Assembly: GCF_016026235.1 (NCBI RefSeq)
Contig: NZ_CP065613.1
Direction: 5' to 3' (one strand)
Origin: Escherichia coli
GTDB lineage: Bacteria > Pseudomonadota > Gammaproteobacteria > Enterobacterales > Enterobacteriaceae
Length of the DNA stretch: 64,000 bases
Each line of letters starts with the position of its first letter. Within the stretch, counting starts at the first letter, position 1. Below are positions 18,164 to 54,535 of this stretch, one piece after another. The position numbers and the translations under genes were made by a program. The notes under the pieces were generated by a model, which was not told the DNA's origin, searched no databases, and was given only the letters and a program-made list of their open reading frames with translations.

Positions 18164-18208
18164 AGGTTGCTCCGGGCTATGAAATAGAAAAATGAATCTG
18201 TTGAAGCC

Positions 18209-18300
18209 TGCTTTTTATACTAAGTTGGCATTATAAAAAAGCATTGCTTATCAATTTGTTGCAACGAACAGGTCATTATCAGTCAAAATAAAATCATTAT
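18209..18300. other. attL: lambda-type core plus phage P' arm
   Basis: GCTTTTTATACTAA core followed by GTTGGCATTATAAAAAAGCATTGCTTATCAATTTGTTGCAACGAACAGGTCA... with Int arm-type site CAGTCAAAAT. Confidence 0.8.
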
Positions 18301-19367
18301 TTGATTTCAATTTTGTCCCACTCCCTGCCTCTGTCATCACGATACTGTGATGCCATGGTGTCCGACTTGTGCCCGAGAAGATGTTGAGCAAACTTATCGC
18401 TTATCTGCTTCTCATAGAGTCTTGCAGACAAACTGCGCAACTCGTGAAAGGTAGGTGGATCCCCTTCGAAGGAAAGACCTGATGCTTTTCGTGCGCGCAT
18501 AAAATACCTTGATACTGTGCCGGATGAAAGCGGTTCACGACGAGTAGATGCAATTATGGTTTCTCCGCCAAGAATCTCTTTGCATTTATCAAGTGTTTCC
18601 TTCATTGATATCCCGAGAGCATCAACATGCAATGTTGTAGGGATGGCAATTTTTACGCCTGTTTTGCTTTGCTCGACATAAAGATATCCATCTACGATAT
18701 CAGACCACTTCATTTCGCATAAATCACCAACTCGTTGCCCGGTAACAACAGCCAGTTCCATTGCAAGTCTGAGCCAACATGGTGATGATTCTGCTGCTTG
18801 ATAAATTTTCAGGTATTCGTCAGCCGTAAGTCTTGATCTCCTTACCTCTGATTTTGCTGCGCGAGTGGCAGCGACCGGGTTTGTTGTTATATGGCCTTCA
18901 GCTATTGCCTCTCGGAATGCATCGCTCAGTGTTGATCTGATTAACTTGGCTGATGCCGCCTTGCCCTCGTCTATGTATCCATTGAGCATTGCCGCAATTT
19001 CTTTTGTGGTGATGTCTTCAAGTGGAGCATCAGGCAGCCCCCTCCTTATTGCTTTAATTTTGCTCATGTAATTTATGAGTGTCTTCTGCTTGATTCCTCT
19101 GCTGGCGAGGATTTTTTCGTAGCGATCAAGCCATGAATGTAACGTAACAGAATTATCACTGTTGATTCTCGCTGTCAGAGGCTTGTGTTTGTGTCCTGAA
19201 AATAACTCAATGTTGGCCTGTATAGCTTCAGTGATTGCGATTCGCCTGTCTCGGCCTAATCCAAACTCTTTACCCGTCCTTGGGTCCCTGTAGCAGTAAT
19301 ATCCATTGTTTCTTATATAAAGGTTAGGGGGTAAATCCCGGCGCTCATGACTTCGCCTTCTTCCCAT
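18297..19367 (-). CDS. int: Integrase (tyrosine recombinase), lambda Int type
   Basis: 356 aa starting MGRRRSHERRDLPPNLYIRNNGYYCYRDPRTGKEFGLGRDRR..., recognised as lambda Int. Confidence 0.95.
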   Translation of the reverse strand: MGRRRSHERRDLPPNLYIRNNGYYCYRDPRTGKEFGLGRDRRIAITEAIQANIELFSGHKHKPLTARINSDNSVTLHSWLDRYEKILASRGIKQKTLINYMSKIKAIRRGLPDAPLEDITTKEIAAMLNGYIDEGKAASAKLIRSTLSDAFREAIAEGHITTNPVAATRAAKSEVRRSRLTADEYLKIYQAAESSPCWLRLAMELAVVTGQRVGDLCEMKWSDIVDGYLYVEQSKTGVKIAIPTTLHVDALGISMKETLDKCKEILGGETIIASTRREPLSSGTVSRYFMRARKASGLSFEGDPPTFHELRSLSARLYEKQISDKFAQHLLGHKSDTMASQYRDDRGREWDKIEIK

Positions 19368-32031: not shown

Positions 32032-34938
32032 ATGAGGCCAAGTGAACTTAGCGACCTGCTTTGGGCGCAGGTTGACAGGGTGGCTCCGCACCTGTTGCCA
32101 AATGGCAAGAAAGAGGGGCATGAGTGGGTTGCCGGTAACGTCAACGGTGACAAGGGAAACAGCCTTAAGGTCAACCTTAGCGGCAAGAAAAAATGGGCTG
32201 ATTTCGCTGAGGGAGACGGCGGTGACATGCTTGATTTGTGGATGGCATGTCGTGGAATTAACCTGCATCAGGCTATGCAGGAAGCGAAAGCATTTCTCGG
32301 TATCAAGGATGACGATCACCATTTCGATGCCAGACGTGAGAAGAAATTCTCCAGACCTGATCGCAAGAAAATCGCCCGCTACGTTACCAGAACAGAATCC
32401 CATCTTGAGTACCTGCAATCGCGTGGCATATCGCCAGAAGTCGTAAAGCGCTACGAGGTTGTCAGCGGCAAGGTGTGGAATGGAGAACGAGAACTGGATG
32501 CTCTGGTGCTTCCGTACAAACGCGATGGTGAGTTGTTGCAGGTCAAGCGAATCAGCACTGAGCGCCCGGACGGGAAGAAAGTCATTATGGCAGAAGGTGA
32601 TTGCGAACCTTGTCTGTTCGGATGGCAGGCTCTGGACGCTGGCGTGAGGGCGGTTGTACTTTGCGAAGGCGAAATTGATTGTATGAGCTATGCGCAATAC
32701 GGCATCTCGGCGTTATCCGTGCCGTTTGGTGGCGGGAAAGGCGCTAAGCAACAGTGGATTGAGTTTGAGTATCACAACCTCGACAGGTTTGAGGAAATAT
32801 TCATCTCGATGGACGTTGATGATGTTGGTCGTGAAGCCGCAAGGGAAATCGCAAGCCGACTCGGTGAACATCGTTGCCGTCTTGTTACTCTGCCGTACAA
32901 AGACATCAACGAATGCCTGATGAACGGTGTTACCGAGGATGAAATCTGGCAGTACATCGGCACGGCATCCTACTTTGATCCTGAAGAACTCTACAGCGCG
33001 CGAGAGTTTTACCAGGACACTATCAACGCTTTCTACAGCAAGCAGCAGTATCTGTTTAATCCACCGTGGGAATCTCTGGCAGATAAATTCCAGTTCCGTG
33101 AGGCCGAGTTGACGCTGGTCAATGGTGTGAACGGTCACGGAAAGGCATGCCCACTGAATGAGCCTATTCTTTTAGCTGATGGGACATGGACTACTCACGG
33201 GAATGTAAAAATTGGCGATCAGGTGGCGTCAGTAGACGGCAATCCGTCAACTGTCACTGGGATATTCCCGCAGGGTGTTAGAGATGTTTACCGAGTCACA
33301 TTTGAAGATGGTCGTTATGTTGATTGCGCAGGCGATCACCTATGGGAGGTCACTAGTCGTGGATTCACGAAAGGCGAGAAACGCCGCGTGATAGATACCT
33401 TCGGGTTGAAGCGGTTGAGTGAAACGAAGAGGCACAAAAATGGCGTTAGGATTCCTGAAATAACTGGTGACTTTGGCGACCACTCAGAGCCATTAGCATG
33501 GGTTATCGGCTCCCTTCTCGGGGATGGTAGTCTTAGCAATGGGAGCGTGAAGTTTTCAAACGTCGAGCCATACATGATCGAGCGTATGAAGGCTGAACTG
33601 CCTGATTACAACTTCTCTGGAGATGGTAAGGACTGGCTGATATCAACGGCGCGTGGTCAGGTAAATCCACTCATGGAGACCCTGCGAGGTTATGGACTAA
33701 TGGGGTGCACAGCAAAAAACAAATTCATCCCTCGTGTGTTTTTTTCCGCAAATAAATCAACGCGTATAGGCATGCTGTGTGGTCTGCTTGAAACGGATGG
33801 GTATGTCGAGAAGGATGGAACGCTTGTTTTTTCCTCAGCAAGTGAAGAACTGCGCAATGGGGTTGTTCAACTGGTTAACTCACTCGGCGGGTCATGCCGG
33901 ACGCGAGTTAAAACTGGCGTGACATACACATACAAGGACGATAAGCGGCATGGGATGGATTCATACGAGGCAAGAATCAGACTGACAAGAGAAATCAGGG
34001 AGGCCATCCGTTCACCACGACTCAATGGCAGATTAACTGCGCATCGATTCGAGGGCTGTGGGGTATTCGTCAGGAATGTTGAAAAAATCGGCAATGCAGA
34101 ATGCTTGTGTATTATGGTCGATCACCCTCGCCACCTGTATGTAACCAGGGGATATGTGGCGACGCATAACACCGAGGTTGTCGGGCATATGGCACTTGAG
34201 GCAATGCGTCAGGGTGTGAAGACGTGCATCGCGTCACTTGAGCTGAAGCCTGGTATTCTCCTTAAGCGCCTTACCCGTCAGGCGACGTGCTGCAAGATTC
34301 CGCCAGTGCTGGAAATTGACTCTGCATTTAAATTTTATGACGAAAGACTTTGGGTGTTTGGCCTGACCGGAACGGCGAAAGCCGACAGGCTGATCGAAAT
34401 ATTCGACTACGCTCGCCGCCGATACGGGATCCAGTTATTCATCATCGACAGCCTGATGAAATGTGGCATAGGCGACGATGACTATAACGGGCAGAAGGCG
34501 TTTGTTGACTCGATTTGCGACTTCAAAAACAAAACAAACTCCCACGTCATTCTCGTTACTCACTCGCGAAAAGGAGACAGCGAAGAAAAACCAACCGGGA
34601 AAATGGACGTAAAAGGCTCTGGAGCGATAACAGACCTGACAGACAACCTTTTCATCATCTGGCGTAACAAGGCTCGCGAGAGAGCGTTACAGAGAGTTCA
34701 GAGTGGTGAAAAGATGTCAGAGAAGGACGAACAGCTACTGGCATCTCCGGCATCTGTTTTAATGCTTGAAAAACAACGTAACGGCGAAGGTTGGGAAGGT
34801 GGTGTCCCGTTGTTCCTTGACGAGCAATCGCACCAGTTCCTGCAACTTGAATCAGGATCGCCATATAGCTACATCGCCAATATGCCGAAATCGGAATATG
34901 ACGAGGCGTGGCGACAGGAAAACGTGACGGAGTATTAA
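32032..34938 (+). CDS. Primase-helicase (toprim primase plus DnaB-like helicase) containing an intein
   Basis: 968 aa; toprim motifs (VVLCEGEIDCMS, FISMDVDDVG); helicase P-loop GVNGHGKA and Walker B-like LFIIDSL; intein inserted after GKA. Confidence 0.8.
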   Translation: MRPSELSDLLWAQVDRVAPHLLPNGKKEGHEWVAGNVNGDKGNSLKVNLSGKKKWADFAEGDGGDMLDLWMACRGINLHQAMQEAKAFLGIKDDDHHFDARREKKFSRPDRKKIARYVTRTESHLEYLQSRGISPEVVKRYEVVSGKVWNGERELDALVLPYKRDGELLQVKRISTERPDGKKVIMAEGDCEPCLFGWQALDAGVRAVVLCEGEIDCMSYAQYGISALSVPFGGGKGAKQQWIEFEYHNLDRFEEIFISMDVDDVGREAAREIASRLGEHRCRLVTLPYKDINECLMNGVTEDEIWQYIGTASYFDPEELYSAREFYQDTINAFYSKQQYLFNPPWESLADKFQFREAELTLVNGVNGHGKACPLNEPILLADGTWTTHGNVKIGDQVASVDGNPSTVTGIFPQGVRDVYRVTFEDGRYVDCAGDHLWEVTSRGFTKGEKRRVIDTFGLKRLSETKRHKNGVRIPEITGDFGDHSEPLAWVIGSLLGDGSLSNGSVKFSNVEPYMIERMKAELPDYNFSGDGKDWLISTARGQVNPLMETLRGYGLMGCTAKNKFIPRVFFSANKSTRIGMLCGLLETDGYVEKDGTLVFSSASEELRNGVVQLVNSLGGSCRTRVKTGVTYTYKDDKRHGMDSYEARIRLTREIREAIRSPRLNGRLTAHRFEGCGVFVRNVEKIGNAECLCIMVDHPRHLYVTRGYVATHNTEVVGHMALEAMRQGVKTCIASLELKPGILLKRLTRQATCCKIPPVLEIDSAFKFYDERLWVFGLTGTAKADRLIEIFDYARRRYGIQLFIIDSLMKCGIGDDDYNGQKAFVDSICDFKNKTNSHVILVTHSRKGDSEEKPTGKMDVKGSGAITDLTDNLFIIWRNKARERALQRVQSGEKMSEKDEQLLASPASVLMLEKQRNGEGWEGGVPLFLDEQSHQFLQLESGSPYSYIANMPKSEYDEAWRQENVTEY
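33148..34170 (+). other. Intein (341 aa) with LAGLIDADG homing-endonuclease domain
   Basis: Starts CPLNEPILLADGTW...IGDQVASVDG, two LAGLIDADG-type blocks (LAWVIGSLLGDGSL, GMLCGLLETDGYV), ends ...VATHN followed by Thr. Confidence 0.75.
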
Positions 34939-35291: not shown

Positions 35292-35698
35292 AGCAAACAA
35301 TCTTCCTCCGAACTAAGCAACAACAGCAAGCCGCAATAAATGCCATCCTCTCAACTCCTCTCGATAAAGACAAGCCAGTCACCATCCGCATTACTGACTA
35401 CAAGCGAAATCTTGACCAGAACGCAAAATTTCACGCGATGCTGGCGGATATCGCTCGTCAGGTTCAATGGTGCGGCAAATGGTTAAAACCGGAACAATGG
35501 AAGGTTTTGTTGATCAGCGGTCATGCAGTGGCAACAAAACAGGAAGCTGATGTTTTGCCCGGGCTTGAAGGCGAATACGTCAACATTCGCGAAAGCAGCG
35601 CGCAGATGAGTGTGAAGCGTATGGCAAGTCTGATTGAGTACACGACAGCATGGGCTATTGGTCAGGGTGTCAGATTTACCGACAGGAGGTACGAATGA
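35288..35698 (+). CDS. ninB: NinB recombination protein
   Basis: 136 aa resembling lambda NinB; start overlaps upstream stop. Confidence 0.8.
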
Positions 35699-35871
35699 GA
35701 CGACAGCGACGAAGTATCACCGACATCATCTGCGAAAACTGCAAATACCTTCCAACGAAACGCTCCAGAAATAAACGCAAGCCAATCCCAAAAGAATCTG
35801 ACGTAAAAACCTTCAACTACACGGCTCACCTGTGGGATATCCGGTGGCTAAGACATCGTGCGAGGAAATGA
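35695..35871 (+). CDS. ninE: NinE
   Basis: 58 aa [58 protein letters not shown]. Confidence 0.75.
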
Positions 35872-35914
35872 CAATGGTGCTCGACAAGCCCCGCCGTTCA
35901 GGGCGGGGAAATTG

Positions 35915-36219
35915 TTAAGGATGAGGCTGAATTTCTTCAGGTCGGTATTTTGTTGAGAGATGAGAGATGTCAACTTCTCTCTCTGCTTTTTCAAGACTCC
36001 ATGCCATCTGAAGACGAATCCATGAGGCCGGAGTTCCTCCAAGAACGGCGGCGAGACGAACAGCCATTTCAGGAGAGATTGCCGCATTTCCTGAAACCAG
36101 TCGCTGAACAGTGGAAGGCGCAACATCAAGCGCTCTTGCCAGCTCTCTGATCCCAATATTCTGATCTTCCAGAATATCCGCAATAATTTCTCCTGGATGA
36201 GGGGGTTAAACATCGTCAT
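35915..36219 (-). pseudogene. higA: HigA antitoxin (HTH), frameshifted near its start
   Basis: HTH frame encodes PPHPGEIIADILEDQNIGIRELARALDVAPSTVQRLVSG... but the only start codon is one base out of frame across a C5 run; the 123-aa ORF-track product is the out-of-frame read-through. Confidence 0.6.
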
Positions 36220-36497
36220 TAATGGTAATCCTCGTAGTTAAGAATATAAGCGTCACCGTCACGAAACTCGAAGGTGATCCTCCAGTTACCGGAGACGGAG
36301 ACAGACCACGTATCGGCCCTGTCTCCTTGCAACTGGTGCAGCCTGTAACCGGCAAGGTTAATATCATCAATGATTTCGGCTTGATCTATCACCTGAAGGC
36401 GCATTCTAAGGCGTTTAACATGATTGGGATTTACGCCTGATGCACTTCCAGTTTCAAAGAAACGTTGAAGTCCTTTGTGTTTCCAGCTTTTTATCAT
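36219..36497 (-). CDS. higB: HigB toxin (RelE/ParE superfamily)
   Basis: 92 aa from ATG 36497 with AGGAAACA upstream; MIKSWKHKGLQRFFETGSASGV...GNWRITFEFRDGDAYILNYEDYH matches HigB. Confidence 0.8.
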   Translation of the reverse strand: MIKSWKHKGLQRFFETGSASGVNPNHVKRLRMRLQVIDQAEIIDDINLAGYRLHQLQGDRADTWSVSVSGNWRITFEFRDGDAYILNYEDYH

Positions 36498-36833
36498 GTT
36501 TGTTTCCTGTTGCGTTACGCGAATCATTATAGAGTGTGTTGTGTCATTCGCAACCGTTGGTTTGACAAAAACACATATCCGGGGCTATATTCCCTGAACG
36601 CCAGCAAATCTGGCGTCGGGATTGGCGTCCCGGATATCGAAACGGTGCATAACCGCGCTGGCGGTTTTTTTATGCGCTAAGCACAGTCACATTCGCGATT
36701 TATGGTGGGCTGTGTGGGGGAGTTGAGAGACTCGCCGGATGTTTCGACCGGTTACGCCAACCCTGCACAGTTCACCACCCAGCGATTGGCGTCGCAGGTG
36801 GTGAGTTAAAAACCATCGAAACGCGAGGTCGTT

Positions 36834-37520
36834 ATGACTGTTCAGATTTCTGTCAAAAACCTTTCCCCTGTTACCTATAACCAGATTCCGGTAATCACAA
36901 CTGAGTTGCTTGCCCGCCTTTATGGAACAGAAACAATCCGTATACAGCAGAATCACCATGAAAATAAATCTCGGTTTATTGAGGGAAAGCACTTCTTTAA
37001 AGCTGTTGGTGATGAACTCAGAAATTTGCGACTAGTTTTAAACGAGTCGCAAAATGAGGTGAAAATCTCTCCCAAAACCCGCTCGCTCATCCTCTGGACA
37101 GAACGAGGCGCAGCCCGCCACGCAAAAATGCTCGAAACCGATCAGGCGTGGGAAGTGTTCGAAAAACTGGAAGACTGCTATTTCAGCCAGACTTCGAAAA
37201 GCGCAGGTCATCACGAGAAGAAAACCAGCGAGCTTTCTGCAAAAGATGCAAACAGTCTGGTATGGTTGTGGGATTATGCCAACCGCTCACAGGCATTATT
37301 CCGCGAACTGTATCCGGCGCTAAGACAAATTCAGTCTAACTATTCCGGCAGATGCCACGACTACGGTCATGAGTTCTCGTATGTTATCGGAATGGCGAGA
37401 GACGTTTTAATCAATCACACACGAGATGTTGATATTAATGAGCCAGACGGACCAACGAATCTTTCTGCATGGGTAAGACTTAAGAACAAAGAATTACCTC
37501 CTTCACTACATCACTACTGA
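36834..37520 (+). CDS. ORF6N-domain protein (antirepressor N-terminal domain family)
   Basis: 228 aa; N-terminal 120 aa paralogous to the ORF at 20593-21375. Confidence 0.5.
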
Positions 37521-37587
37521 CAGATTGCCAACGCAACGACCCAGCTTCGGCTGGGTTTTTATTGCTGAATTTTCAATATGAGAGGAC

Positions 37588-40039: not shown

Positions 40040-40114
40040 GGGTCAGTCGTATAAAGGTCATTACGGAAGGCTGTTAACCTTCTTATCGTGGTTCGAGTCC
40101 ACGCTGTCCCGCCA
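40040..40114 (+). tRNA. tRNA-like gene, anticodon GTT (Asn) by manual fold; possibly degenerate
   Basis: Cloverleaf: acceptor GGGTCAG/CTGTCCC (one mismatch), 3-bp D stem, anticodon stem GAAGG/CCTTC with loop CTGTTAA, T arm CGTGG-TTCGAGT-CCACG, 3' CCA. Confidence 0.45.
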
Positions 40115-40119
40115 AATAT

Positions 40120-40195
40120 GCTGGTTTAGCTCTAATGGTAGAGCAGTCGCCTTGTAAGCGAATGGGTAGCGGTTCAAGTCCGTTAACCAGCACCA
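40120..40195 (+). tRNA. tRNA, anticodon TGT (Thr) by manual fold
   Basis: Perfect acceptor stem GCTGGTT/AACCAGC, D arm GCTC-TAATGGTA-GAGC, anticodon loop CTTGTAA, T arm AGCGG-TTCAAGT-CCGTT, 3' ACCA. Confidence 0.55.
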
Positions 40196-42614: not shown

Positions 42615-42657
42615 TGAGGTGTACTGGCAATAGCGGACACTACCATTTGTTCTTTTT

Positions 42658-43476
42658 TTAAGCAGCCATCTGATGATATTTTTCCCTGAAGGCTGCCGGG
42701 GAGATATTCCCCAGACGAGAGTGACGACGCTGACGATTGTAGAAAATCTCAATGTATTCCCGTATTACTGAGATGGCTTCATCCCGGTTATTAAAACGAT
42801 AGTGGCTCAGGCTCTCATTTTTCAGCGTTCCCCAGAAGCTTTCCATCGGAGCGTTGTCGTAACAGTTACCTTTACGCGACATTGATGTTTTCAGACCAAA
42901 CTGCTCCTGTATGACCCGGTAATCGTATGCGCAGTACTGTGAACCTCGATCAGAGTGGTGGATTAGCCCGGCAGGTGGGCGCTGGCTCCTGAGCGCCATA
43001 AACAGGGCTTTACCTGTCAGCTCTTTTGTCATGCGCTCTCCCATGGCGTAGCCGACAATTTCGCACGTATAAACATCTTTGATGCCAGCGAGGTACAACC
43101 ATCCCTCCTGTGTGGCAACATACGTCAGGTCCGCCACCCAGACCTGATTTGGTGCTGTAGGAGCGAACGTCTGGTTCAGCAGATTTGGCGCAACTGGCAG
43201 ATTGTGGTTCGGGTTCGTAGTCGCTCTGAACTTGCGTTTCTGCTTACAGCGTAGCCTTAGCTCCTTACGAAGACGTGCCAGTCGGTCACGACCAACGATG
43301 ATGCCATTCTCTGCCAGCTCCGTCTGGAGCCGCCGGGTTCCATATGTTTCGCGAGTGCGGATATGTGCCACCTTAATCTCCAGTTTTAGCCGCTCATCAC
43401 TTTGTTTTCTGTCTGAGGGTTCATGCTGTACCCAGTTGTAATAACCGCTCCTGGATACACCAAATACCTGACACAT
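42658..43476 (-). CDS. IS3-family transposase OrfB (DDE integrase domain)
   Basis: 272-aa ORF with DDE motif region; normally expressed as an OrfAB fusion by -1 frameshift. Confidence 0.85.
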   Translation of the reverse strand: MCQVFGVSRSGYYNWVQHEPSDRKQSDERLKLEIKVAHIRTRETYGTRRLQTELAENGIIVGRDRLARLRKELRLRCKQKRKFRATTNPNHNLPVAPNLLNQTFAPTAPNQVWVADLTYVATQEGWLYLAGIKDVYTCEIVGYAMGERMTKELTGKALFMALRSQRPPAGLIHHSDRGSQYCAYDYRVIQEQFGLKTSMSRKGNCYDNAPMESFWGTLKNESLSHYRFNNRDEAISVIREYIEIFYNRQRRHSRLGNISPAAFREKYHQMAA

Positions 43477-43525
43477 CGCTTCAATGGGAAATTGTTGTCG
43501 CCATTGTTCGATTAACGCGTATTTT

Positions 43526-43813
43526 TCAGCGACTCCTGTGCAAAATACGCTGTTGCTTTTTTAATATATCTCGCTCAAGGCGAGCTTCATTTAACGCCTT
43601 ACGCAGTTGCAGAATTTCAGATTCCAGTTCAGCCACCGTGCGGGAGCCAGGAGTACCGAGCCCTTTTCTGGCGGCGGTAACCCATTGTCCTAAAGTGCCT
43701 TCAGGAAGGGATAATCGGGAAGCGCCTTCACTGATCGAAAGTTGATTTTCAAGAACCGTTCTGACAGCTTCGGCTTTGAACTCTTTAGAGTAACGTTGGG
43801 TTTTTCTGCTCAT
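43526..43813 (-). CDS. IS3-family transposase OrfA (HTH)
   Basis: 95 aa with HTH and leucine zipper; slippery TTAAAAAAG near its 3' end. Confidence 0.85.
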   Translation of the reverse strand: MSRKTQRYSKEFKAEAVRTVLENQLSISEGASRLSLPEGTLGQWVTAARKGLGTPGSRTVAELESEILQLRKALNEARLERDILKKQQRILHRSR

Positions 43814-43877
43814 TATTAGCTCCTTCTGATGCCATTCTATTTCAGGAAGGAGTGTCCGTTAAACTCAGGCTACCTCA

Positions 43878-45014: not shown

Positions 45015-45508
45015 ATGGATCGAGAGTTAAAAAATCTGACGCTGAATATCAGTCAACTGGCGGCACTGTCAGGTGTACATCGCCAGACTGCTGCGGCAAG
45101 GCTGCAAAATCTACCCGTTGCAGGGGGCATGAAAGCAACCTCAAGCTTTATCGGGTGGTTGATATTGTGTCGGCATTTCTGGCATTACCACCGCCGGTTG
45201 CAGAAGGCGAAATGGACGCGCATGAGCGCAAAGCCTGGTATCAGTCTGAACGTGAGCGTCTTAAGTTCGAACAGGAAACGGCACAACTCATTCCGGCCAG
45301 TGATGTCAGACGGGAGTTTGCCATCTGGGCAAAAGCGGTCGTGCAGGTGCTGGAGACATTACCGGATATTCTTGAACGTGACTGCGGTCTGCAGCCTGCC
45401 GCTGTGAGCCGTGTTCAGTCCATTATTGATGATCTGCGCGATCAGATAGCCCTGCGGGTGACTGAAGCAGGTGCGGATGATGAGGAGGAATTACAGCAGG
45501 AGGAGTAA
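45015..45508 (+). pseudogene. Terminase small subunit, apparently frameshifted at a G5 run
   Basis: N-terminal HTH part (MDRELKNLTLNISQLAALSGVHRQTAAARLQNLPVAGG) in one frame, acidic C-terminal part ending at 45508 in another; switch near GCAGGGGGCATG about 45125. Confidence 0.5.
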
Positions 45509-47610
45509 TGCTGAATCAGGAAACCGCAAAGGCAGCACGAACCGATTCAGGTTATATCCTTCGCGCACCAAGACGAATGCGGGTTGCTGATGCCGTTGCT
45601 CAGTATATGCGGGTGCCCATGGGGGCAGGGAACTCAGTCCCGTGGGATCCGCTGGTGGCACCGTATGTTATTGAGCCGATGAACTGCCTGGCCTCGCGTG
45701 AATACGACGCAGTGATATTTGTTGGCCCGGCACGAACCGGCAAGACTATCGGCCTGATTGACGGCTGGGTGATTTACAACGTGATTTGCGATCCTGCTGA
45801 TATGCTGATCATTCAGATGACGGAGGAAAAAGCCCGCGAACACTCCAAAAAACGACTCGCCAGAACGTTTCGCGTCAGCCCGGAAGTGGTCAGTCGCCTG
45901 AGTCCGAACAAAAATGACAACAACGTTTATGACAGAACATTCCTTGCTGGCAACTACCTGAAAATCGGCTGGCCGTCAGTCAATATCATGTCCTCATCAG
46001 ATTATAAATGCGTCGCGCTGACGGATTATGACCGTTTTCCGGAAGATATTGATGGTGAGGGGGATGCTTTCTCTCTTGCCTCAAAACGTACCACAACATT
46101 TATGTCCAGTGGTATGACGCTGGTGGAGAGTTCCCCCGGCAGGGATGTGAAGGATGTGAAATGGCGACGGACTTCACCGCATGAGGCTCCACCAACCACG
46201 GGGATACTGTCGCTCTATAACCGTGGCGATCGCCGTCGCTGGTACTGGCCCTGTCCACACTGTGGTGAGTATTTTCAGCCCTGCGGCGATGTGGTTGCTG
46301 GTTTCCGTGATATTGCCGATCCCGTGCTGGCAAGTGAGGCGGCTTATATTCAGTGTCCTTCCTGTTCAGGACGGATTATGCCTGAACAAAAACGTGAGCT
46401 GAACGGACGTGGGGTCTGGTTGCGGGATGGTGAATCCATCAATGCGGATGGCAGTCGTTATGGTGATCCCAGGCGTTCACGTATTGCGTCATTCTGGATG
46501 GAGGGTCCGGCAGCTGCTTACCAGACACTCTCGCAACTCGTTTACAAACTGCTTACTGCAGAACAGGAATACGAGACAACCGGAAGTGAAGAAACACTCA
46601 GGGCGGTTATCAACACCGACTGGGGATTACCTTATCTTCCCCGCGCCAGCATGGAGCAACGAAAAAGTGAACTGCTTGAGCAGCGGGCAGAGCCTGTTCC
46701 TCCCCGCTGCGTGCCGGATGGTGTTAATTTCCTGGCGGCGACAGTGGATGTGCAGGCGGGACGTCATCGCCGTTTTGTGGTTCAGGTAACGGGTTATGGT
46801 TGCCGTGGCGAACGCTGGATTATTGATCGTTACAACATCACGCAGTCATTGCGTTGTGACAACAACGGAGAAAGCCTGCGAATTGATCCTGCTGGTTATC
46901 CTGAGGACTGGGATGTCCTGCTGACGGATGTTTTTCATAAAAGCTGGCCGTTGGCCTCCGATCCTTCTCAACAAATGCGACTGATGGCAATGGCGGTGGA
47001 CTCCGGCGGTGAAGACGGGGTCACTGATAATGCCTATAAATTCTGGCGTCGTTGCCGTCGTGATGGCCTTGGTAAACGTATTTACCTGTTTAAGGGCGAC
47101 AGCATCCGGCGCGCAAAACTGATCACCCGTACATTCCCTGATAACACCGGACGAACGGGCCGACGGGCGCAGGCCGCAGGTGATGTGCCGCTCTGGCTTC
47201 TTCAGACGGATGCCCTGAAAGACCGGGTGAATAACGCGTTATGGCGTGACTCGCCAGGTCCCGGCTATGTGCATTTCCCTGACTGGCTGGGGAGCTGGTT
47301 TTACGACGAACTGACGTATGAAGAGCGGAGCAGTGACGGGAAATGGAGTAAGCCGGGTCGAGGTGCCAACGAAGCTTTTGACCTGATGGTGTATGCCGAG
47401 GCTCTGGTCATTCTGCATGGTTACGAGAAAATTCAGTGGCCGGATGCGCCGGAATGGGCATGCAGGGAAACCTGGCTGGAGCGTGTCAGGGACGATGCCG
47501 GACTGTCAGCCTCGCCGGAGCCGGTATCCGTGTCCGTTAAAAAAAAGAAACGAAAAAAAGTGGTGCCTGATGAAGAAAACCCATGGGTGACTTCCGGAGG
47601 ATGGTTGTGA
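45508..47610 (+). CDS. Terminase large subunit (GpA family)
   Basis: 700 aa; Walker A (VGPARTGKT), large size, position before the portal gene. Confidence 0.9.
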   Translation: MLNQETAKAARTDSGYILRAPRRMRVADAVAQYMRVPMGAGNSVPWDPLVAPYVIEPMNCLASREYDAVIFVGPARTGKTIGLIDGWVIYNVICDPADMLIIQMTEEKAREHSKKRLARTFRVSPEVVSRLSPNKNDNNVYDRTFLAGNYLKIGWPSVNIMSSSDYKCVALTDYDRFPEDIDGEGDAFSLASKRTTTFMSSGMTLVESSPGRDVKDVKWRRTSPHEAPPTTGILSLYNRGDRRRWYWPCPHCGEYFQPCGDVVAGFRDIADPVLASEAAYIQCPSCSGRIMPEQKRELNGRGVWLRDGESINADGSRYGDPRRSRIASFWMEGPAAAYQTLSQLVYKLLTAEQEYETTGSEETLRAVINTDWGLPYLPRASMEQRKSELLEQRAEPVPPRCVPDGVNFLAATVDVQAGRHRRFVVQVTGYGCRGERWIIDRYNITQSLRCDNNGESLRIDPAGYPEDWDVLLTDVFHKSWPLASDPSQQMRLMAMAVDSGGEDGVTDNAYKFWRRCRRDGLGKRIYLFKGDSIRRAKLITRTFPDNTGRTGRRAQAAGDVPLWLLQTDALKDRVNNALWRDSPGPGYVHFPDWLGSWFYDELTYEERSSDGKWSKPGRGANEAFDLMVYAEALVILHGYEKIQWPDAPEWACRETWLERVRDDAGLSASPEPVSVSVKKKKRKKVVPDEENPWVTSGGWL

Positions 47611-47819
47611 ACCAGAATGATATTGAAGCCATGATCCATCGTTATATCAATGCGGAAATGGCAGTGCTGGACGGAAAGTCCATTACTTTTAATGGTCAGC
47701 AGATGACCATGGAAAACTTATCCGAGATCCGACAGGGGCGGCAGGAGTGGGAACGTCGCCTTGCGACTCTGGCTGCGCGGCGACGGGGGACGCCGGGCTA
47801 TAAACTGGCGAGGTTCTGA
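47601..47819 (+). CDS. Head-tail joining protein W-like
   Basis: 72 aa from ATG 47601 with GGAGG upstream; overlaps the terminase stop. Confidence 0.65.
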   Translation: MVVNQNDIEAMIHRYINAEMAVLDGKSITFNGQQMTMENLSEIRQGRQEWERRLATLAARRRGTPGYKLARF

Positions 47820-49324
47820 TGGCAATTCTTGATGATGTGATTGGTGTTTTTTCACCTGGCTGGAAAGCTGCGAGATTGCGCTCAAGGGCATTAATTCGTG
47901 CCTATGAGGCAGTGAAGCCTACTCGTACACATAAAGCCCGGCGGGAAAATCGTTCTGCCGACCAGCTCAGTAAGTACGGTGCAGTTTCCCTGCGGGAGCA
48001 GGCTCGTTTTCTGGACATCAATCATGATCTGGTAATCGGTGTTTTCGACAAACTTGAGGAACGGGTGATTGGTGCAAAAGGGATCGTTGTCGAACCCCAG
48101 CCATTACTGAAGAACGGTGATATAGCCACAGAGCTGGCAATGATTATCCGTCGCTTGTGGGTGGAATGGTCTGTCAGTCCGGATGTGACCGGGCAGTATA
48201 CGCGCCCCATGCTCGAGCGTCTGCTGCTGCGTACCTGGTTACGTGATGGTGAAGTGTTTGCCCAGCTGGTTCGTGGTGCCGGCGGCGGGCTGGTGCGGAC
48301 TGCTGGCGTGCCTTTCTGGATCGAGGCAATGGAGCCGGATTTTGTGCCCATGCTCAGTGATGAATCTGTGGGGTTGAATCAGGGTGTTTTTCTGGATGAC
48401 TGGGGCAGACCGAAAAAATACCTGGTTTATAAAAATCATCCGACTACCGGGCGGCTGAGTGATACCAAAGAGATCGTTGCCGAAAATATGGTGCATCTGA
48501 AATTTACCCGTCGTCTGCATCAGACGCGTGGTACATCCATGTTGTCAGGTGTGCTGATGCGGATCAGTGCGCTTAAGGAATATGAAGATGCTGAGCTGAC
48601 AGCGGCGCGTGTTGCTGCGGCTCTGGGGCTGTATATCCGTAAAGGAGATGGGCAGGATTATGAAGACGCCACGATAAATAAAGATAATGACCGGGAACTG
48701 CATATCACCCCTGGCATTATTTATGACGATTTGCGCAAGGGGGAAGATATTGGCATGGTCAAATCTGATCGGCCCAATCCTAACCTTGAAACTTTTCGTA
48801 ACGGGCAGCTGCGTGCGGTGGCCGCAGGCAGTCGTATGAGTTTTTCCAGTGCGGCGCGCAATTACAACGGTACCTACAGCGCTCAGCGACAGGAGCTGGT
48901 CGAGTCCACTGACGGGTATCTGATCCTGCAGGACTGCTTTATTGGTGCTGTAACCCGTCCCGTGTACCGGACGTGGCTGAACATGGTGGTAGCAGCAGGT
49001 CTGCTGAAAATCCCGTCGGATGTGGATATGAAAACGTTGTGTAACGCAACATATTCCGGTCCGGTCATGCCGTGGATTGATCCGGTTAAGGAGGCTGAGG
49101 CCTGGAAAATCCAGATTCGCGGTGGAGCGGCGACAGAATCAGACTGGGTGCGAGCAGGTGGGCGTAATCCGGATGATGTCAAACGTCGGCGCAAGGCTGA
49201 AATTGATGAAAACCGCAAGCTGGGTCTGATATTTGATACCGATCCGGCCAGTGATAAAGGAGGCAGCAGTGTCGCAACGAAACGACAGGAGCCGCAGCAC
49301 ACCGACGGCCAGTCCGAAGAATAA
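47819..49324 (+). CDS. Portal protein
   Basis: 501 aa; position and size typical of lambda gpB-type portals. Confidence 0.85.
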   Translation: MAILDDVIGVFSPGWKAARLRSRALIRAYEAVKPTRTHKARRENRSADQLSKYGAVSLREQARFLDINHDLVIGVFDKLEERVIGAKGIVVEPQPLLKNGDIATELAMIIRRLWVEWSVSPDVTGQYTRPMLERLLLRTWLRDGEVFAQLVRGAGGGLVRTAGVPFWIEAMEPDFVPMLSDESVGLNQGVFLDDWGRPKKYLVYKNHPTTGRLSDTKEIVAENMVHLKFTRRLHQTRGTSMLSGVLMRISALKEYEDAELTAARVAAALGLYIRKGDGQDYEDATINKDNDRELHITPGIIYDDLRKGEDIGMVKSDRPNPNLETFRNGQLRAVAAGSRMSFSSAARNYNGTYSAQRQELVESTDGYLILQDCFIGAVTRPVYRTWLNMVVAAGLLKIPSDVDMKTLCNATYSGPVMPWIDPVKEAEAWKIQIRGGAATESDWVRAGGRNPDDVKRRRKAEIDENRKLGLIFDTDPASDKGGSSVATKRQEPQHTDGQSEE

Positions 49325-49337
49325 TTCCTGGTTCAGG

Positions 49338-51329
49338 ATGCAGGCAGGTCACCAGAGTGACGCGGATATTTATATTTATGACGAGATTGGTTTCTGGGGT
49401 GTTACGGCGAAGCAGTTTATCAGCGATCTGAATGCACTGGGCGATATCACCCACATTAATCTCCATATCAATTCACCGGGTGGCGATGTCTTTGAAGGCA
49501 TCGCCATTTTTAATGCACTGAAAACACATGGTGCGTCCATTACCGTTTATGTCGACGGTGTGGCGGCATCAATGGCGTCGGTCATTGCGATGGTGGGAAA
49601 CCCGGTCATTATGCCGGAAAACACCTTCATGATGATTCATAAACCATTTGGCTTTACGGGCGGTGATGCGGAGGACATGCGCACCTATGCCGACCTGCTC
49701 GATAAAGTTGAGGCGGTTCTGTTACCCGCTTATGCACAGAAAACCGGGAAAACCACCGATGAAGTTGCTGCCATGCTGGCGGATGAGACCTGGATGTCCG
49801 GTGCCGAATGTCTGGCACATGGATTTGCTGATCAGGTGACGCCAGCCGTTAAGGCAATGGCATGTATTCAGTCAAAACGTACAGAGGAATTTAAAAAGAT
49901 GCCGGAATCCATTCGAAACATGATTACTCCGCCACGCAACAGTGCAACGCGTGAACCTGAAAACAAAAATACTGCATCTCAGACACAGGAGCAGACTACG
50001 GCTCAGGTTGCCACAACCGCGACCACCACAAATGCACCTTCCGCAGATGAAAGCAGTATCCGTGCGCAGGTACTGGCAGAGCAAAAAGCACGTGTGAGTG
50101 GTATTAATGAACTGTTTGGTATGTTTGGCGGGCGTTATCAGACATTGCAGGCCAGTTGTCTTTCCGATCCGGAGTGCTCGCTTGAGCAGGCCCGTGAGAA
50201 ATTACTTAACGAAATGGGTAAGGAATTTTCACCATCAAATAAAAATACCCCGGCCCATATTTATGCCGGAAACGGTAATTTTGTGGGGGACGGGATCCGC
50301 CAGGCGCTGATGGCGCGTGCCGGGTTTGAAAAAACTGAACGTGATAATGTCTACAACGGGATGACCCTGCGTGAATATGCCCGTATGTCACTGACTGAAC
50401 GGGGTATTGGGGTTTCCGGTTATAACCCGATGCAGATGGTCGGGGCAGCGTTCACACACAGTACGTCTGACTTCGGTAATATTCTGCTGGATGTTGCGAA
50501 CAAAGCCATTCTGCAGGGCTGGGAAGATGCCCCTGAAACCTATGAACAGTGGACGCGGAAAGGTCAGCTGTCTGATTTTAAAATTGCCCATCGTGTGGGT
50601 ATGGGGGGCTTCAGTGCTCTGCGTCAGGTGCGTGAAGGAGCGGAATATAAATACGTTACTACCGGAGATAAACAGGCCACGATTGCACTGGCGACCTATG
50701 GTGAACTGTTCAGTATCACCCGTCAGGCCATTATCAACGATGATCTGAATATGCTGACCGATGTCCCGATGAAACTGGGCCGTGCGGCAAAATCCACTAT
50801 TGCCGATCTGGTTTATGCCATTCTGACGTCTAACCCGAAAATCTCCACAGATAATGTAAGTCTGTTCGATAAAGCGAAACATGCAAACGTACTGGAGAGC
50901 GCTGCAATGGACGTGGCATCGCTGGATAAAGCCCGCCAGTTGATGCGTGTTCAGAAAGAGGGTGAGCGTCATCTGAATATTCGTCCTGCGTTCGTACTGG
51001 TACCGACGGCGATGGAGTCTGTTGCTAACCAGGTCATTCGCTCCTCAAGTGTCAAGGGGGCTGACATTAACGCCGGTATTATTAACCCGGTGAAAGATTT
51101 TGCGACCGTTATTGCAGAGCCTCGTCTTGATGATAACAGCCAGACCACCTTCTACCTGGCTGCGTCCAAAGGCTCCGATACGATTGAAGTGGCTTATCTC
51201 AACGGTGTGGATACGCCATATATTGATCAGATGGAGGGCTTCAGTGTGGATGGCGTGACAACGAAAGTGCGTATTGACGCTGGTGTCGCGCCAGTTGATC
51301 ACCGCGGTCTGGTGAAATGTACGGCGTAA
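49338..51329 (+). CDS. Prohead protease / major capsid fusion protein
   Basis: N-terminal ClpP/S49-like protease motifs (SPGGDVFEGIAIFNAL..), C-terminal 300 aa Mu gpT-like capsid domain. Confidence 0.75.
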   Translation: MQAGHQSDADIYIYDEIGFWGVTAKQFISDLNALGDITHINLHINSPGGDVFEGIAIFNALKTHGASITVYVDGVAASMASVIAMVGNPVIMPENTFMMIHKPFGFTGGDAEDMRTYADLLDKVEAVLLPAYAQKTGKTTDEVAAMLADETWMSGAECLAHGFADQVTPAVKAMACIQSKRTEEFKKMPESIRNMITPPRNSATREPENKNTASQTQEQTTAQVATTATTTNAPSADESSIRAQVLAEQKARVSGINELFGMFGGRYQTLQASCLSDPECSLEQAREKLLNEMGKEFSPSNKNTPAHIYAGNGNFVGDGIRQALMARAGFEKTERDNVYNGMTLREYARMSLTERGIGVSGYNPMQMVGAAFTHSTSDFGNILLDVANKAILQGWEDAPETYEQWTRKGQLSDFKIAHRVGMGGFSALRQVREGAEYKYVTTGDKQATIALATYGELFSITRQAIINDDLNMLTDVPMKLGRAAKSTIADLVYAILTSNPKISTDNVSLFDKAKHANVLESAAMDVASLDKARQLMRVQKEGERHLNIRPAFVLVPTAMESVANQVIRSSSVKGADINAGIINPVKDFATVIAEPRLDDNSQTTFYLAASKGSDTIEVAYLNGVDTPYIDQMEGFSVDGVTTKVRIDAGVAPVDHRGLVKCTA

Positions 51330-51353
51330 ACGTCGCAGATAACAACTCTGATG

Positions 51354-51372
51354 GCCCGTAAGGGCTTTTTTT
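51354..51372 (+). terminator. Rho-independent terminator after the capsid gene
   Basis: GCCCGTAAGGGC hairpin followed by TTTTTTT. Confidence 0.5.
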
Positions 51373-51415
51373 GTACCTGAAATCAGCCCCTGAACGGGGC
51401 TGTGCGGAGACAGTT

Positions 51416-51739
51416 ATGGCAAAGAATTTTGTAGAAGAAGGGAAAACGGTGGCGATTGTTGCCAGTGCAGCCATCAGCAGCGGAGATCTGGTGCAGGTGG
51501 GTGATGTTTTTGCGGTGGCGCTGACCGATATTCCACAGGGTGAAACAGGCGACGGCCTGACCGAAGGTGTGTTTATGCTGCCTAAGCTGAAAACGGATGA
51601 CATGAAAACGGGTAAGAAGGTTTTTCTGAAGTCCGGAAAAGTTCAGCTGACTAACAGCGGCTCTGATCCGCTGGTCGGGGTTGTCTGGGCAGATGCCGGA
51701 GCTGGTGCAGAAGAAGTGCCGGTAAAACTCAATGTCTGA
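51416..51739 (+). CDS. DUF2190-like small head protein
   Basis: 107 aa from ATG 51416; Gly/Val-rich. Confidence 0.45.
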   Translation: MAKNFVEEGKTVAIVASAAISSGDLVQVGDVFAVALTDIPQGETGDGLTEGVFMLPKLKTDDMKTGKKVFLKSGKVQLTNSGSDPLVGVVWADAGAGAEEVPVKLNV

Positions 51740-52007
51740 TCCCTTTTCCCGGCTGGCAGCGCGTATGGATGCGATCACGGTCAGAAAGATGGGAAAGATG
51801 GCCTCGATTAATGATGTTTATATGCCTGTGCTCCCGGGAGAAACTCTGGCAGAGCTGAACGCTCTGTCCGGACCGGCGGTCTCTCTGGTGGTGTTTTCTT
51901 CGGGATACCGCCCACGGCGCGGGGACCGCGTTGTTTATGACGGACAACAATGGACGGTCACACGGCATGAACGCTTTAACGGTAAACCAATGATCTTTAT
52001 TGAGTAA
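51732..52007 (+). CDS. Putative head completion / head-tail connector protein
   Basis: 91-aa ORF between head and tail modules. Confidence 0.35.
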   Translation: MSDPFSRLAARMDAITVRKMGKMASINDVYMPVLPGETLAELNALSGPAVSLVVFSSGYRPRRGDRVVYDGQQWTVTRHERFNGKPMIFIE

Positions 52008-52018
52008 AGAGGTGTGGG

Positions 52019-52603
52019 ATGAAGGGGCTTGAGAATGCCATCCGTAATCTGAACAGCCTCGATACCCGCATGGTGCCACAGGCCAGCGCATGGGCGGTAA
52101 ACCGTGTGGCGGCAAAGATTATTTCTGTCGCCACACGGCAGGTTGCGCAGAATACCGTTGCCGGGGATAACCAGGTGAAAGGTATTCCCCTGAAAACGGT
52201 CAGGGAGCGTGTCAGGCTGCTTAAAGCCAGCCCCTCAGGAAAAATGTATGCCCGCATGCGTGTTAACCGGGGTAACCTGCCCGCCATTAAGCTGGGTACC
52301 GCACAGGTCAGACTGGCCCGCTCCCGGCATGGCAGCAACTCACGTCATCGTGGCAGCGTACTGAAAGTGGGGAAATACCTTTTCCGGGATGCGTTTATTC
52401 AGCAACTGGCGAATGGTCGCTGGCATGTGATGCGGCGTATTGACGGCAAAAATCGTTACCCCATTGATGTGGTGAAAATCCCGCTGTCCGGACCGCTGAC
52501 ACAGGCATTTGAAGATGCCCGCGACCGCATCATTGCTGCGGAAATGCCGAAACAGCTGGGGTATGCACTGAAACAACAACTGAGGTTATGGCTGACCCGA
52601 TGA
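52019..52603 (+). CDS. Z: Minor tail protein Z
   Basis: 194 aa; resembles lambda gpZ (GRWHVMRRIDGKNRYPIDVVKIP). Confidence 0.8.
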   Translation: MKGLENAIRNLNSLDTRMVPQASAWAVNRVAAKIISVATRQVAQNTVAGDNQVKGIPLKTVRERVRLLKASPSGKMYARMRVNRGNLPAIKLGTAQVRLARSRHGSNSRHRGSVLKVGKYLFRDAFIQQLANGRWHVMRRIDGKNRYPIDVVKIPLSGPLTQAFEDARDRIIAAEMPKQLGYALKQQLRLWLTR

Positions 52604-53001
52604 ACCGACATACACAGATCCGCCAGGTCGTACTGGCACGCCTTCGGGAACAGTGTGGAGACAGCGCCACGTTTTTTGACGGGCTTCCGGCATTTGTTGA
52701 TGCGCAGGAACTGCCTGCCGTGGCGGTGTGGCTGAGTGATGCTCAGTACACCGGAAAAATGACGGATGAAGATGACTGGCAGGCTGTTCTGCATATTGCT
52801 GTCTTCATCCGGGCACAGGCACCGGATTCAGAGCTGGATATGTGGATGGAGAGCACCATTTTCCCGGCCCTGAATGATGTACCGGCACTTTCCGGACTCA
52901 TCGACACCATGAACCCACTCGGTTTTAACTATCAACGTGATAATGAGATGGCCACCTGGGCGATGGCGGAAATCACGTACCAGATCACGTACACGAATTA
53001 A
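52588..53001 (+). CDS. U: Tail terminator protein U
   Basis: 137 aa; resembles lambda gpU. Confidence 0.8.
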   Translation: MADPMNRHTQIRQVVLARLREQCGDSATFFDGLPAFVDAQELPAVAVWLSDAQYTGKMTDEDDWQAVLHIAVFIRAQAPDSELDMWMESTIFPALNDVPALSGLIDTMNPLGFNYQRDNEMATWAMAEITYQITYTN

Positions 53002-53011
53002 GGAGGTGGCA

Positions 53012-53752
53012 ATGACCACACCAAATCCACTGGCAAAAACGAAAGGTGCGGGAACGACGTTCTGGATGTACACCGGCAAGGGCGATGCGTTTGCGAACCC
53101 TTTGTCGGACACTGACTGGCTGCGTCTTGCGATGGTGAAGGATCTGCAACCTGGCGAAATGACCGCTGATGCAGAAGATGACACTTATCTCGATGATGAA
53201 GATGCAGACTGGAAAACGACAACCCAGGGGCAGAAATCCGTCGGTGATACTTTGGCGACGCTGGCCTGGCGTCCGGGTGACAGCGGGCAGAAAAAACTGG
53301 TTCAGTTGTTCGATTCCGGTGAAGTCTGCGCGTTTCGTATCAAATACCCCAACGGTACGGTTGATGTTTTCCGTGGCTGGCTGAGTTCACTGGGTAAAAC
53401 CATTACCTCAAAAGAGGTGATGACCCGTACTGTAAAAATCAGCGGTGTGGGGCGTCCGTATCTGGCAGAGGAGGGCGCTGAAACCGTGGGTGTTACCGGA
53501 CTGACGGTGGCACCGGCATCTGTCAGTGTCAAAGCGGGAGCAACCACCACACTGACCTTTACAGTAAAACCTGACGGGGCCAGTGACAAAGCGATCAGTG
53601 TGCATTCGTCAGATCCTCAGACTGCTTCGGTGACCCTGAGCGGGCTTGTGGCCACGGTGAAAGGCGTGAAGCAGGGCAGTGTCAGCATCGTGGGCATGAC
53701 CTCTGACGGAGAGTTTGTGGCAGTGGCTGCGGTGACCGTCAGCGCACCATAA
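53012..53752 (+). CDS. V: Major tail protein V (with C-terminal Ig-like domain)
   Basis: ATG 53012 with AGGAGGTGG upstream; 246 aa. Confidence 0.85.
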   Translation: MTTPNPLAKTKGAGTTFWMYTGKGDAFANPLSDTDWLRLAMVKDLQPGEMTADAEDDTYLDDEDADWKTTTQGQKSVGDTLATLAWRPGDSGQKKLVQLFDSGEVCAFRIKYPNGTVDVFRGWLSSLGKTITSKEVMTRTVKISGVGRPYLAEEGAETVGVTGLTVAPASVSVKAGATTTLTFTVKPDGASDKAISVHSSDPQTASVTLSGLVATVKGVKQGSVSIVGMTSDGEFVAVAAVTVSAP

Positions 53753-53792
53753 CAGGACGATACTCATCATTGCCCCGGTTATCCGGGGCTTT

Positions 53793-54197
53793 TTGCATCC
53801 GGAGAACATGATGTTTCTGAAACAGGATACGTTTAATTATGAAAAACAGTCCGTGGTGCTCAGTGAGCTGTCCGGGCTGCAGAGAATTGAATATCTGACG
53901 TTTGTTCAGCAGCGAACGGCAAAGTTTGATGCACAGGAGGGAGAACTGCCGGAGGCTGAACGACAGATTGCTTTTCTGCGTATGGGAATGGATATCAATG
54001 CCTGGCTGGTTTCCCGCTCACTGTGGAATGCTGAGCAGTCTCAGGATGTTGAGACGCTTTGCGCATCCATTATGACAACATGGTCGTATGATGCGCTGGG
54101 CGCGGGGGCGGAGAGGGTTCTGTCGCTGAGCGGTATGGGGACCATTGAGAATGCCGGGGATGATGATCATGAGGCGCTGACGCCGGAAAAGTCCTGA
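53793..54197 (+). CDS. G: Tail assembly chaperone G
   Basis: About 130 aa; MFLKQDTFNYEKQSVVLSELSGLQRIEYL resembles lambda gpG. Confidence 0.75.
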   Translation: MHPENMMFLKQDTFNYEKQSVVLSELSGLQRIEYLTFVQQRTAKFDAQEGELPEAERQIAFLRMGMDINAWLVSRSLWNAEQSQDVETLCASIMTTWSYDALGAGAERVLSLSGMGTIENAGDDDHEALTPEKS

Positions 54198-54205
54198 CGC
54201 GGGAA

Positions 54206-54535
54206 ATGCAGTTTGTCATGCGGCTTGCCCGGGAGTTCCGGCGGGCAGACTGGCGGCGGATGCTGTCGGAAATGTCGGCCACTGAGCTTGGTGAGTGGGG
54301 CGATTATTTCCGGATGCAGAGCTTCAGTGATGTGTGGATGGATGCGCAGTTTGCCTCGCTGAAGGCATTGATCGTGAGAATGGTGTCCGGCAGCAGCGAT
54401 GCTGCGGTGGCTGATTTCAGCCTTTTACCGGAAGAGAACGGGATACCGGAGCGAACGGACGAAGAACTGATGCATCTTGGGGAAGGTATTTCCGGAGGTG
54501 TGCGTTATGGACCAGATAGCCAACCTGGTCATTGA
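54206..54535 (+). CDS. T: T portion of the G-T tail assembly chaperone (-1 frameshift product)
   Basis: ORF in the -1 frame relative to G; G-frame stop preceded by CCGGAAAAG, a candidate slippery region. Confidence 0.55.
   Translation: MQFVMRLAREFRRADWRRMLSEMSATELGEWGDYFRMQSFSDVWMDAQFASLKALIVRMVSGSSDAAVADFSLLPEENGIPERTDEELMHLGEGISGGVRYGPDSQPGH

Follow-up and report, generated by a model that had tools for sequence, protein, structure and literature searches.

Gene content of the higBA locus

The window, a 64,000-nucleotide stretch of the Escherichia coli contig NZ_CP065613.1, contains a toxin-antitoxin gene pair of the higB-higA type on the minus strand of a lambdoid prophage. The toxin gene higB (36219–36497, minus strand) is intact and encodes a 92-aa protein of the Rts1/Proteus type within the RelE/ParE superfamily, its reading frame running from an ATG at 36497 to a TAA stop codon at 36221–36219. 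The sequence AGGA is located 7 nt upstream of the start codon. An ATG at 36527, which would give rise to a 102-aa HigB, was rejected as the higB start because it is situated within the -10 box and every homologue has a length of 92 aa. The antitoxin gene higA (35915–36219, minus strand) lies downstream in the same operon, with the higB stop codon and the higA ATG (36219–36217) overlapping as TAATG and a single promoter-like site upstream of the pair. That site, a sigma-70-like promoter on the minus strand at 36526–36553 (TTGCGA-16 nt-TATAAT), was identified by a consensus scan with 10/12 matches, and the promoter segment is conserved in E. coli relatives. Short inverted repeats (GTTGCG..CACAAC and GCGT-A-ACGC) extend over the promoter and are candidate HigA operators by analogy with O1 and O2 of Rts1 hig (PMC12266136).

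To the left the pair is bordered by ninE (58 aa; 35695–35871, plus strand), which marks the nin region of the prophage and whose identical counterpart in relatives is annotated with PF05322, and to the right by a roi-like gene with ORF6N and P22_AR_C domains (228 aa; 36834–37520, plus strand). A minus-strand higB-higA pair in the nin region, with a full-length toxin gene and a good ribosome binding site, had been described in a first-pass annotation of this DNA and that description was borne out. A GC-rich hairpin at 35889–35908 (CCCCGCC-CTGAAC-GGCGGGG, no strand assigned) is located between the convergent higA and ninE genes and is probably a bidirectional terminator lacking a T tract; it went unreported by a terminator scan because it has no T run. 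Matches to Ralstonia phages (9 records, 97%) cover only 34–35 nt at this hairpin (35876–35910) and were set aside as irrelevant to higBA, the likeness probably being due to chance or to a convergent terminator-like hairpin.

The prophage integrase gene (18297–19367) adjoins ybhC, the lambda attachment site, and the prophage contains insertion sequences. The prophage is defective and occupies the lambda attachment site, and it carries higBA as additional genes between ninE and the roi-like gene. Elsewhere in the prophage, genes for tRNA-Asn(GTT) and tRNA-Thr(TGT) are found at 40040–40195, between the Q antiterminator and the lysis genes, and a 968-aa Toprim primase-like replication protein is encoded at 32032–34938. 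Annotations of identical relatives record a weak LAGLIDADG_3 match on the latter protein, which may carry a homing-endonuclease or intein-like insert.

The host flank (1–16.4 kb) is 99.9% identical to FDAARGOS_943, a strain recorded as E. coli that is ipaH-positive. In the window an ipaH E3-ligase effector gene (6760–8586) adjoins a baseplate/tail-fibre prophage remnant (1–6600). The ipaH gene together with the ipaH-positive nearest flank points to a Shigella/EIEC-like chromosome, despite the E. coli label of the nearest record.

The HigB toxin

Comparison of HigB to the Pfam family HigB-like_toxin (PF05015) resulted in alignment of residues 3–92 to positions 1–91 of the 91 model positions (E 3.3e-21), and 92 residues aligned without gaps to HigB of Rts1 from Proteus vulgaris (PDB 4mct_B, E 1.2e-30). 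[quoted passage not shown] All four are conserved in the alignment to 4mct_B, the C terminus of the protein reading ...NYEDYH. The first-pass annotation had made its reading conditional on HigB not being catalytically dead; judged by its sequence the toxin is not obviously dead and looks active, and it is predicted from its family to be a ribosome-dependent mRNA endonuclease. Real loss of HigA would consequently be expected to be harmful, which is consistent with the absence of the shortened higA run described below from all other copies. The identical HigB protein was found on 39 public contigs by exact protein look-up.

The higA reading frame

As recorded, the reading frame of higA is broken by a missing base in a run of C residues. 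From the higA ATG the sequence reads ATG ACG ATG TTT AAC CCC CTC ATC CAG GAG..., and this frame continues as a 123-aa ORF (35848–36219, minus strand) beginning MTMFNPLIQEKLL... that matched no NCBIfam family in a profile search. The ORF is, as had been proposed in the first-pass annotation, an out-of-frame read-through. The recognisable HigA (PPHPGEIIADILEDQNIGIRELARALDVAPSTVQRL...) is encoded in a frame that is open only from 36205 to a stop codon at 35917–35915, comprising 96 codons (PPHPGEIIADILEDQ...), with a TAA at 36208–36206 directly upstream. This frame has no ATG, GTG or TTG before residue 52, the first being that at 36067, from which an ORF of 50 aa would be read. An intact higA reading frame with a standard start codon is therefore not present in the recorded sequence.

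The ATG frame and the HigA frame meet at a C5 run at 36201–36205 on the minus strand (G5 on the plus strand), which is the site of an apparent -1 deletion. Addition of one C to this run, a repair already suggested in the first-pass annotation, restored a 101-aa ORF beginning MTMFNPPHPGEII... that scored 89.1 bits on TIGR02607 antidote_HigA (cut-off 47.7). The repaired protein matched PDB 2icp_A with E 7e-28 and Rts1 HigA (4mcx_A) with E 6e-20, and the helix-turn-helix family PF01381 HTH_3 is recorded on an identical protein in relatives. By homology to Rts1 HigA, it would neutralise HigB and repress the hig promoter. The exact C6-repaired HigA was found on 38 public contigs by protein look-up. 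The 123-aa and 50-aa by-products of the C5 run and the 102-aa product were all absent from a collection of 15 billion proteins, which argues weakly against a C5 run in any other assembly.

If the C5 run were real, HigA could be supplied by two routes. One is initiation at the ATT codons at 36187–36185 and 36184–36182, which would result in proteins of 90 and 89 aa, respectively; AGGAG at 36194–36190 is positioned 2 nt before the former and 5 nt before the latter codon and constitutes a strong Shine-Dalgarno sequence. The 90-aa protein (MIADILEDQ...; 35915–36187, minus strand) is the HigA called for a C5-type allele in a public annotation (QPR12276.1 / WP_197933478.1), presumably that of the window's own genome. 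It is seen on one contig only, and it scores 74.9 bits on TIGR02607 but does so without profile positions 1–12; as read from the sequence, it may be translated. The other route is an occasional -1 slip of tRNA-Pro on AAC-CCC-C, in which the tRNA could move back by one base from CCC in the P site and still pair perfectly with the C run, so that full-length HigA would be made. Initiation at AUU is weak. Furthermore, the N-terminal segment of Rts1 HigA becomes ordered on HigB binding (PMC12266136), and neutralisation of HigB by the truncated protein is doubtful because this segment is missing from it. An active HigB restrained either by a 12-residue-shorter HigA started at AUU or by full-length HigA from a -1 slip is considered very unlikely. 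If it were true, the locus would represent a toxin-biased toxin-antitoxin module poised to fire, for instance on prophage induction or translational stress.

The geometry of the site might also be read as programmed -1 ribosomal frameshifting that tunes the ratio of toxin to antitoxin, as the shift from the ATG frame to the HigA frame is one of -1 and slipping back on CCC would yield exactly the wild-type protein. No X XXY YYZ heptamer is present however, and UUU AAC CCC CUC permits only a single-tRNA slip on CCC. Folding of the 91 nt downstream gave -24.2 kcal/mol at z = -0.74, with 51 of 200 shuffled sequences folding as well, and the two-frame arrangement is conserved in no relative, all of which carry higA in a single frame. 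Programmed frameshifting, lacking heptamer, structure and conservation, was rejected as barely credible.

Length of the C run in other copies of higBA

The run length at the higA site was compared to other copies of the locus, as the first-pass annotation had called for, and every one of them has an in-frame run of 6 or 7 bases. None of the complete E. coli genomes in the collection carries the higBA allele of the window, the best match being 91% identical. In three E. coli genomes the run is C6 or C7; E. coli relatives read TTTAACCCCCCTCAT (C6), while an orphan higA of Stx phages reads TTTACCCCCCCTCAT, a C7 run with the total length unchanged. All 19 loci with identical 14-nt flanks have a run of 6 at the higA site, and a viral contig (L006) has the window's own higBA allele, but with C6. 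HigA is called as 101 aa beside HigB in all nine places listed. Over kilobases the window DNA is identical to assemblies such as CP065611.1, JAALAC010000002.1, UFYN01000002.1 and the IMG/VR contig UViG_2537561977_000031.

IMG/VR viral contigs and metagenome contigs were additionally searched with a degenerate DNA pattern across the C run in which 0–2 extra bases were allowed. The extra base was present in all 11 matches to the pattern in IMG/VR and both of the matches in metagenome contigs had the longer in-frame run; the C5 length of the window had no match in any collection under this pattern. A metagenome scan with the window's own C5 allele likewise returned no match. Neither exact nor degenerate C-run patterns matched in species-representative genomes, a set that collapses Shigella into E. 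coli and is for that reason uninformative on this point.

These comparisons also bear on the possibility that the culture was mixed at the run, with slipped-strand variants of C6 and C5 from which the consensus called a minority or near-equal C5. Homopolymer runs are indeed prone to slippage. A 6-base run is however short for phase variation, no length polymorphism was seen at the higA site in any relative and a mixture at this site would leave seven other contractions in the window, some of them non-coding, unexplained. A mixed culture is accordingly regarded as extremely unlikely.

Homopolymer contractions across the window

The C run of higA is one of eight sites in the window at which a homopolymer is shortened by a single base (18211, 36200, 37555, 43556, 45122, 55667, 56545 and 57261). 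All eight are deletions, with no insertions, in runs that are 6–8 long in relatives. No other locus covering one of these sites shares the contraction, based on an exact-flank check where possible. At the higA site, a run of at least 6 elsewhere is shorter by 1 nt, and this contraction is confined to one assembly and accompanied by like errors.

Substitutions are nearly absent from the same alignments. Three loci (L006, L017 and L022) showed 0 substitutions to the window over 2.2–3.1 kb, with 1-nt gaps only at 36200 and 37555. Comparison to L026 over 20.3 kb resulted in 2 substitutions, one 21-bp repeat-unit indel and four 1-nt deletions in the window, at 36200, 37555, 43556 and 45122. An NCTC assembly (L042) aligned over 17,694 nt without a single substitution, the only gaps being those at 43556 and 45122. 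The 21-bp unit (GGTGGGGCAGGAGCTGCCCGG), present in L026 as the closest relative, is absent from the window at 30011, a site in the replication-gene region close to an inserted IS110.

The contractions fall in coding and non-coding sequence alike. Those at 18211 and 37555 are intergenic or non-coding. The latter, a T5 run at 37556–37560 on the plus strand, is the second contraction near higBA and all 17 other loci have T6. At 18205–18225 the lambda att core beside the integrase gene reads GCTTTTTATACTAA (T5), and FDAARGOS_943 reads GCTTTTTTATACTAA (T6), the canonical lambda core, at the att junction. The contraction at 43556 is inside an IS600 element (42615–43877, minus strand) with A6 on the coding strand at 43557–43562, where five other copies have A7. 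This A6 site is located about 44 nt before the orfA stop codon, where the programmed -1 frameshift motif of the IS3 family lies. A DUF1441 small-terminase-like gene (45015–45508) is frameshifted by a G5 run (45123–45127) that is G6 in 12 other loci; repair restored a 164-aa ORF just as repair of the C run restored that of higA. Finally, the tape-measure gene (54477–57298) is split into ORFs of 378, 297 and 221 aa, to which contractions at 55668–55672, 56546–56552 and 57262–57266 contribute. None of the three is found in other assemblies and an exact look-up of the 221-aa fragment returned no record.

A different pattern was observed for an 83-nt deletion in the tape-measure gene between GGGCAGT direct repeats (55506–55512). 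An independent NCTC assembly (L041) has the same lesion, which is for that reason probably real, meaning that the tail module is probably genuinely defective. The identity of the window to the higBA prophage of UGFA01000002.1 (L042) extends to 55512; past this point the window agrees instead with the second prophage in the same genome (L041). The switch at about 55500 is due either to an assembly chimera or to recombination between two prophages that are nearly identical. Two sister long-read assemblies (L037 and L041) have homopolymer indels of their own at other positions, and these serve as a positive control for this class of artefact.

The distribution of the contractions is uneven, with 1 in roughly 50 long runs before 36 kb as opposed to 7 in roughly 35 after it, and the first 16.4 kb of host sequence has no indel relative to FDAARGOS_943. 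The segment 44.5–55.5 kb is duplicated at >99.9% identity in a second prophage of related genomes (L039 and L041). Failure of short-read polishing in multi-copy IS600 and in the duplicated prophage explains the clustering in part. A model in which errors occur only in repeats that short reads cannot polish was rejected in its strict form; it explains 43556 in IS600 and the sites from 45122 to 57261, but does not obviously account for 18211, 36200 and 37555.

Origin of the C5 run

We consider it highly probable that the missing C at 36201–36205 is a consensus undercall of a 6-base homopolymer and that the higBA operon of the organism is a normal one with C6. This reading is based on the eight unshared deletions in long runs, without insertions and with 0–2 substitutions relative to the nearest genomes, and on a run length that differs from all other copies examined. 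It is further based on the different behaviour of the shared 83-nt deletion and on the occurrence of the same artefact class in L037 and L041. Single-base homopolymer deletions without substitutions are the typical error profile of long-read or poorly polished assemblies. Several observations weigh against an undercall. The run length is deduced by comparison rather than read from sequencing reads, and the host flank of 16.4 kb is without indels, so that the error rate would have to be uneven. An unpolished repeat does not obviously account for 36200 and 37555 in the higBA/nin segment. Among natural frameshifts, moreover, those by homopolymer slippage are the commonest, and Shigella prophages do decay, the present one having insertion sequences and a real 83-nt deletion.

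The rival reading is a genuine -1 deletion in higA, with the cell surviving by residual antitoxin, by poor higB expression or by a HigA paralogue elsewhere. The record does read C5, the public annotation calls the ATT-started HigA, the two ATT codons and the CCC slip site described above offer routes to some antitoxin and the prophage is defective already. On the other hand, the allele is found nowhere else while 38 other contigs have the intact pair, and seven further unshared contractions accompany it at approximately 0–2 substitutions. Natural mutation, even in a mutator, would not yield such a ratio of indels to substitutions or a bias of eight deletions out of eight. Natural decay in this family moreover took the opposite course, as Stx2a phages kept higA and lost higB. 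A genuine deletion is on this account improbable, and all readings in which C5 is real are, even when taken together, unlikely. A mismatch-repair mutator background was likewise judged unlikely. In a mutator, transitions would be expected to outnumber indels several-fold and the indels to include insertions as well as deletions, whereas here eight deletions, 0 insertions and 0–2 substitutions were found.

The first-pass annotation had implied that the cell lives with an intact toxin in the absence of any antitoxin, and this part of it is left unsupported by the in-frame state of the other copies and by the seven further contractions. With an undercall as the preferred reading, sequencing reads across the site would be expected to show C6, and full-length HigA of 101 aa is very probably produced in the cell. 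The underlying higBA is already known, with identical proteins in dozens of assemblies. By inference from the Rts1 family, one promoter would transcribe higB and then higA, and translation of the two genes would be coupled via TAATG. HigA dimers would bind HigB as well as operators over the promoter, and HigB that is left free would cleave ribosome-bound mRNA.

One miscounted base is in this way enough to make a routine toxin-antitoxin pair look like an orphan-toxin paradox. The miscount probably seeded the public record WP_197933478.1, a 90-aa ATT-started HigA that may not exist in nature. The seven other miscounts would falsely break the small-terminase gene, add frameshifts to the tape-measure gene and alter the lambda att core and the slippery site of IS600. 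Until the source assembly is re-polished, caution is advisable with pseudogene counts, toxin-antitoxin inventories and calls of prophage integrity drawn from it. Were the base truly missing, the locus would constitute a natural test of how much HigA, and which of its N-terminal residues, are needed to restrain HigB.

Comparison to known higBA systems

The HigB-HigA pair of the Proteus vulgaris plasmid Rts1 (PDB 4MCT/4MCX/6W6U) is likewise toxin-first with a 92-aa HigB, its HigA is likewise an Xre-type HTH protein of about 100 aa and its promoter is likewise overlapped by short inverted repeats. Unlike the plasmid-borne Rts1 pair, the pair in the window is prophage-borne on a chromosome and its operators are candidates. 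HigA of the window is nearer to PDB 2icp, recorded as 'antitoxin higa' (E 7e-28), than to Rts1 HigA, and the recorded higA of the window differs from that of Rts1 in being short of one base.

Assemblies with the identical allele, for example CP065611.1, have the same HigB in the same slot between ninE and a roi-like gene. They differ from the window in having C6, a 101-aa HigA and longer runs at the other contracted sites. The E. coli prophage higBA represented by WP_000597785.1 / WP_001240641.1 (strain S19-651 and phage GER2) is about 91% identical and shares the operon, the TAATG overlap, the C6 run and the location in a lambdoid early/nin region, but differs by about 9% nucleotide divergence and in its neighbouring genes.

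Stx2a-converting phages (PA2 and VT2phi_272) and O157:H7 prophages have an orphan in-frame higA that is about 90% identical to that of the window and follows a higB remnant of no more than the last ~24 nt. A gene for a ParD-family antitoxin is located near the orphan higA (L003, 2990–3330, and Stx2a phages). These phages have lost the toxin gene but retain the antitoxin gene, the reverse of what had been proposed for the window.
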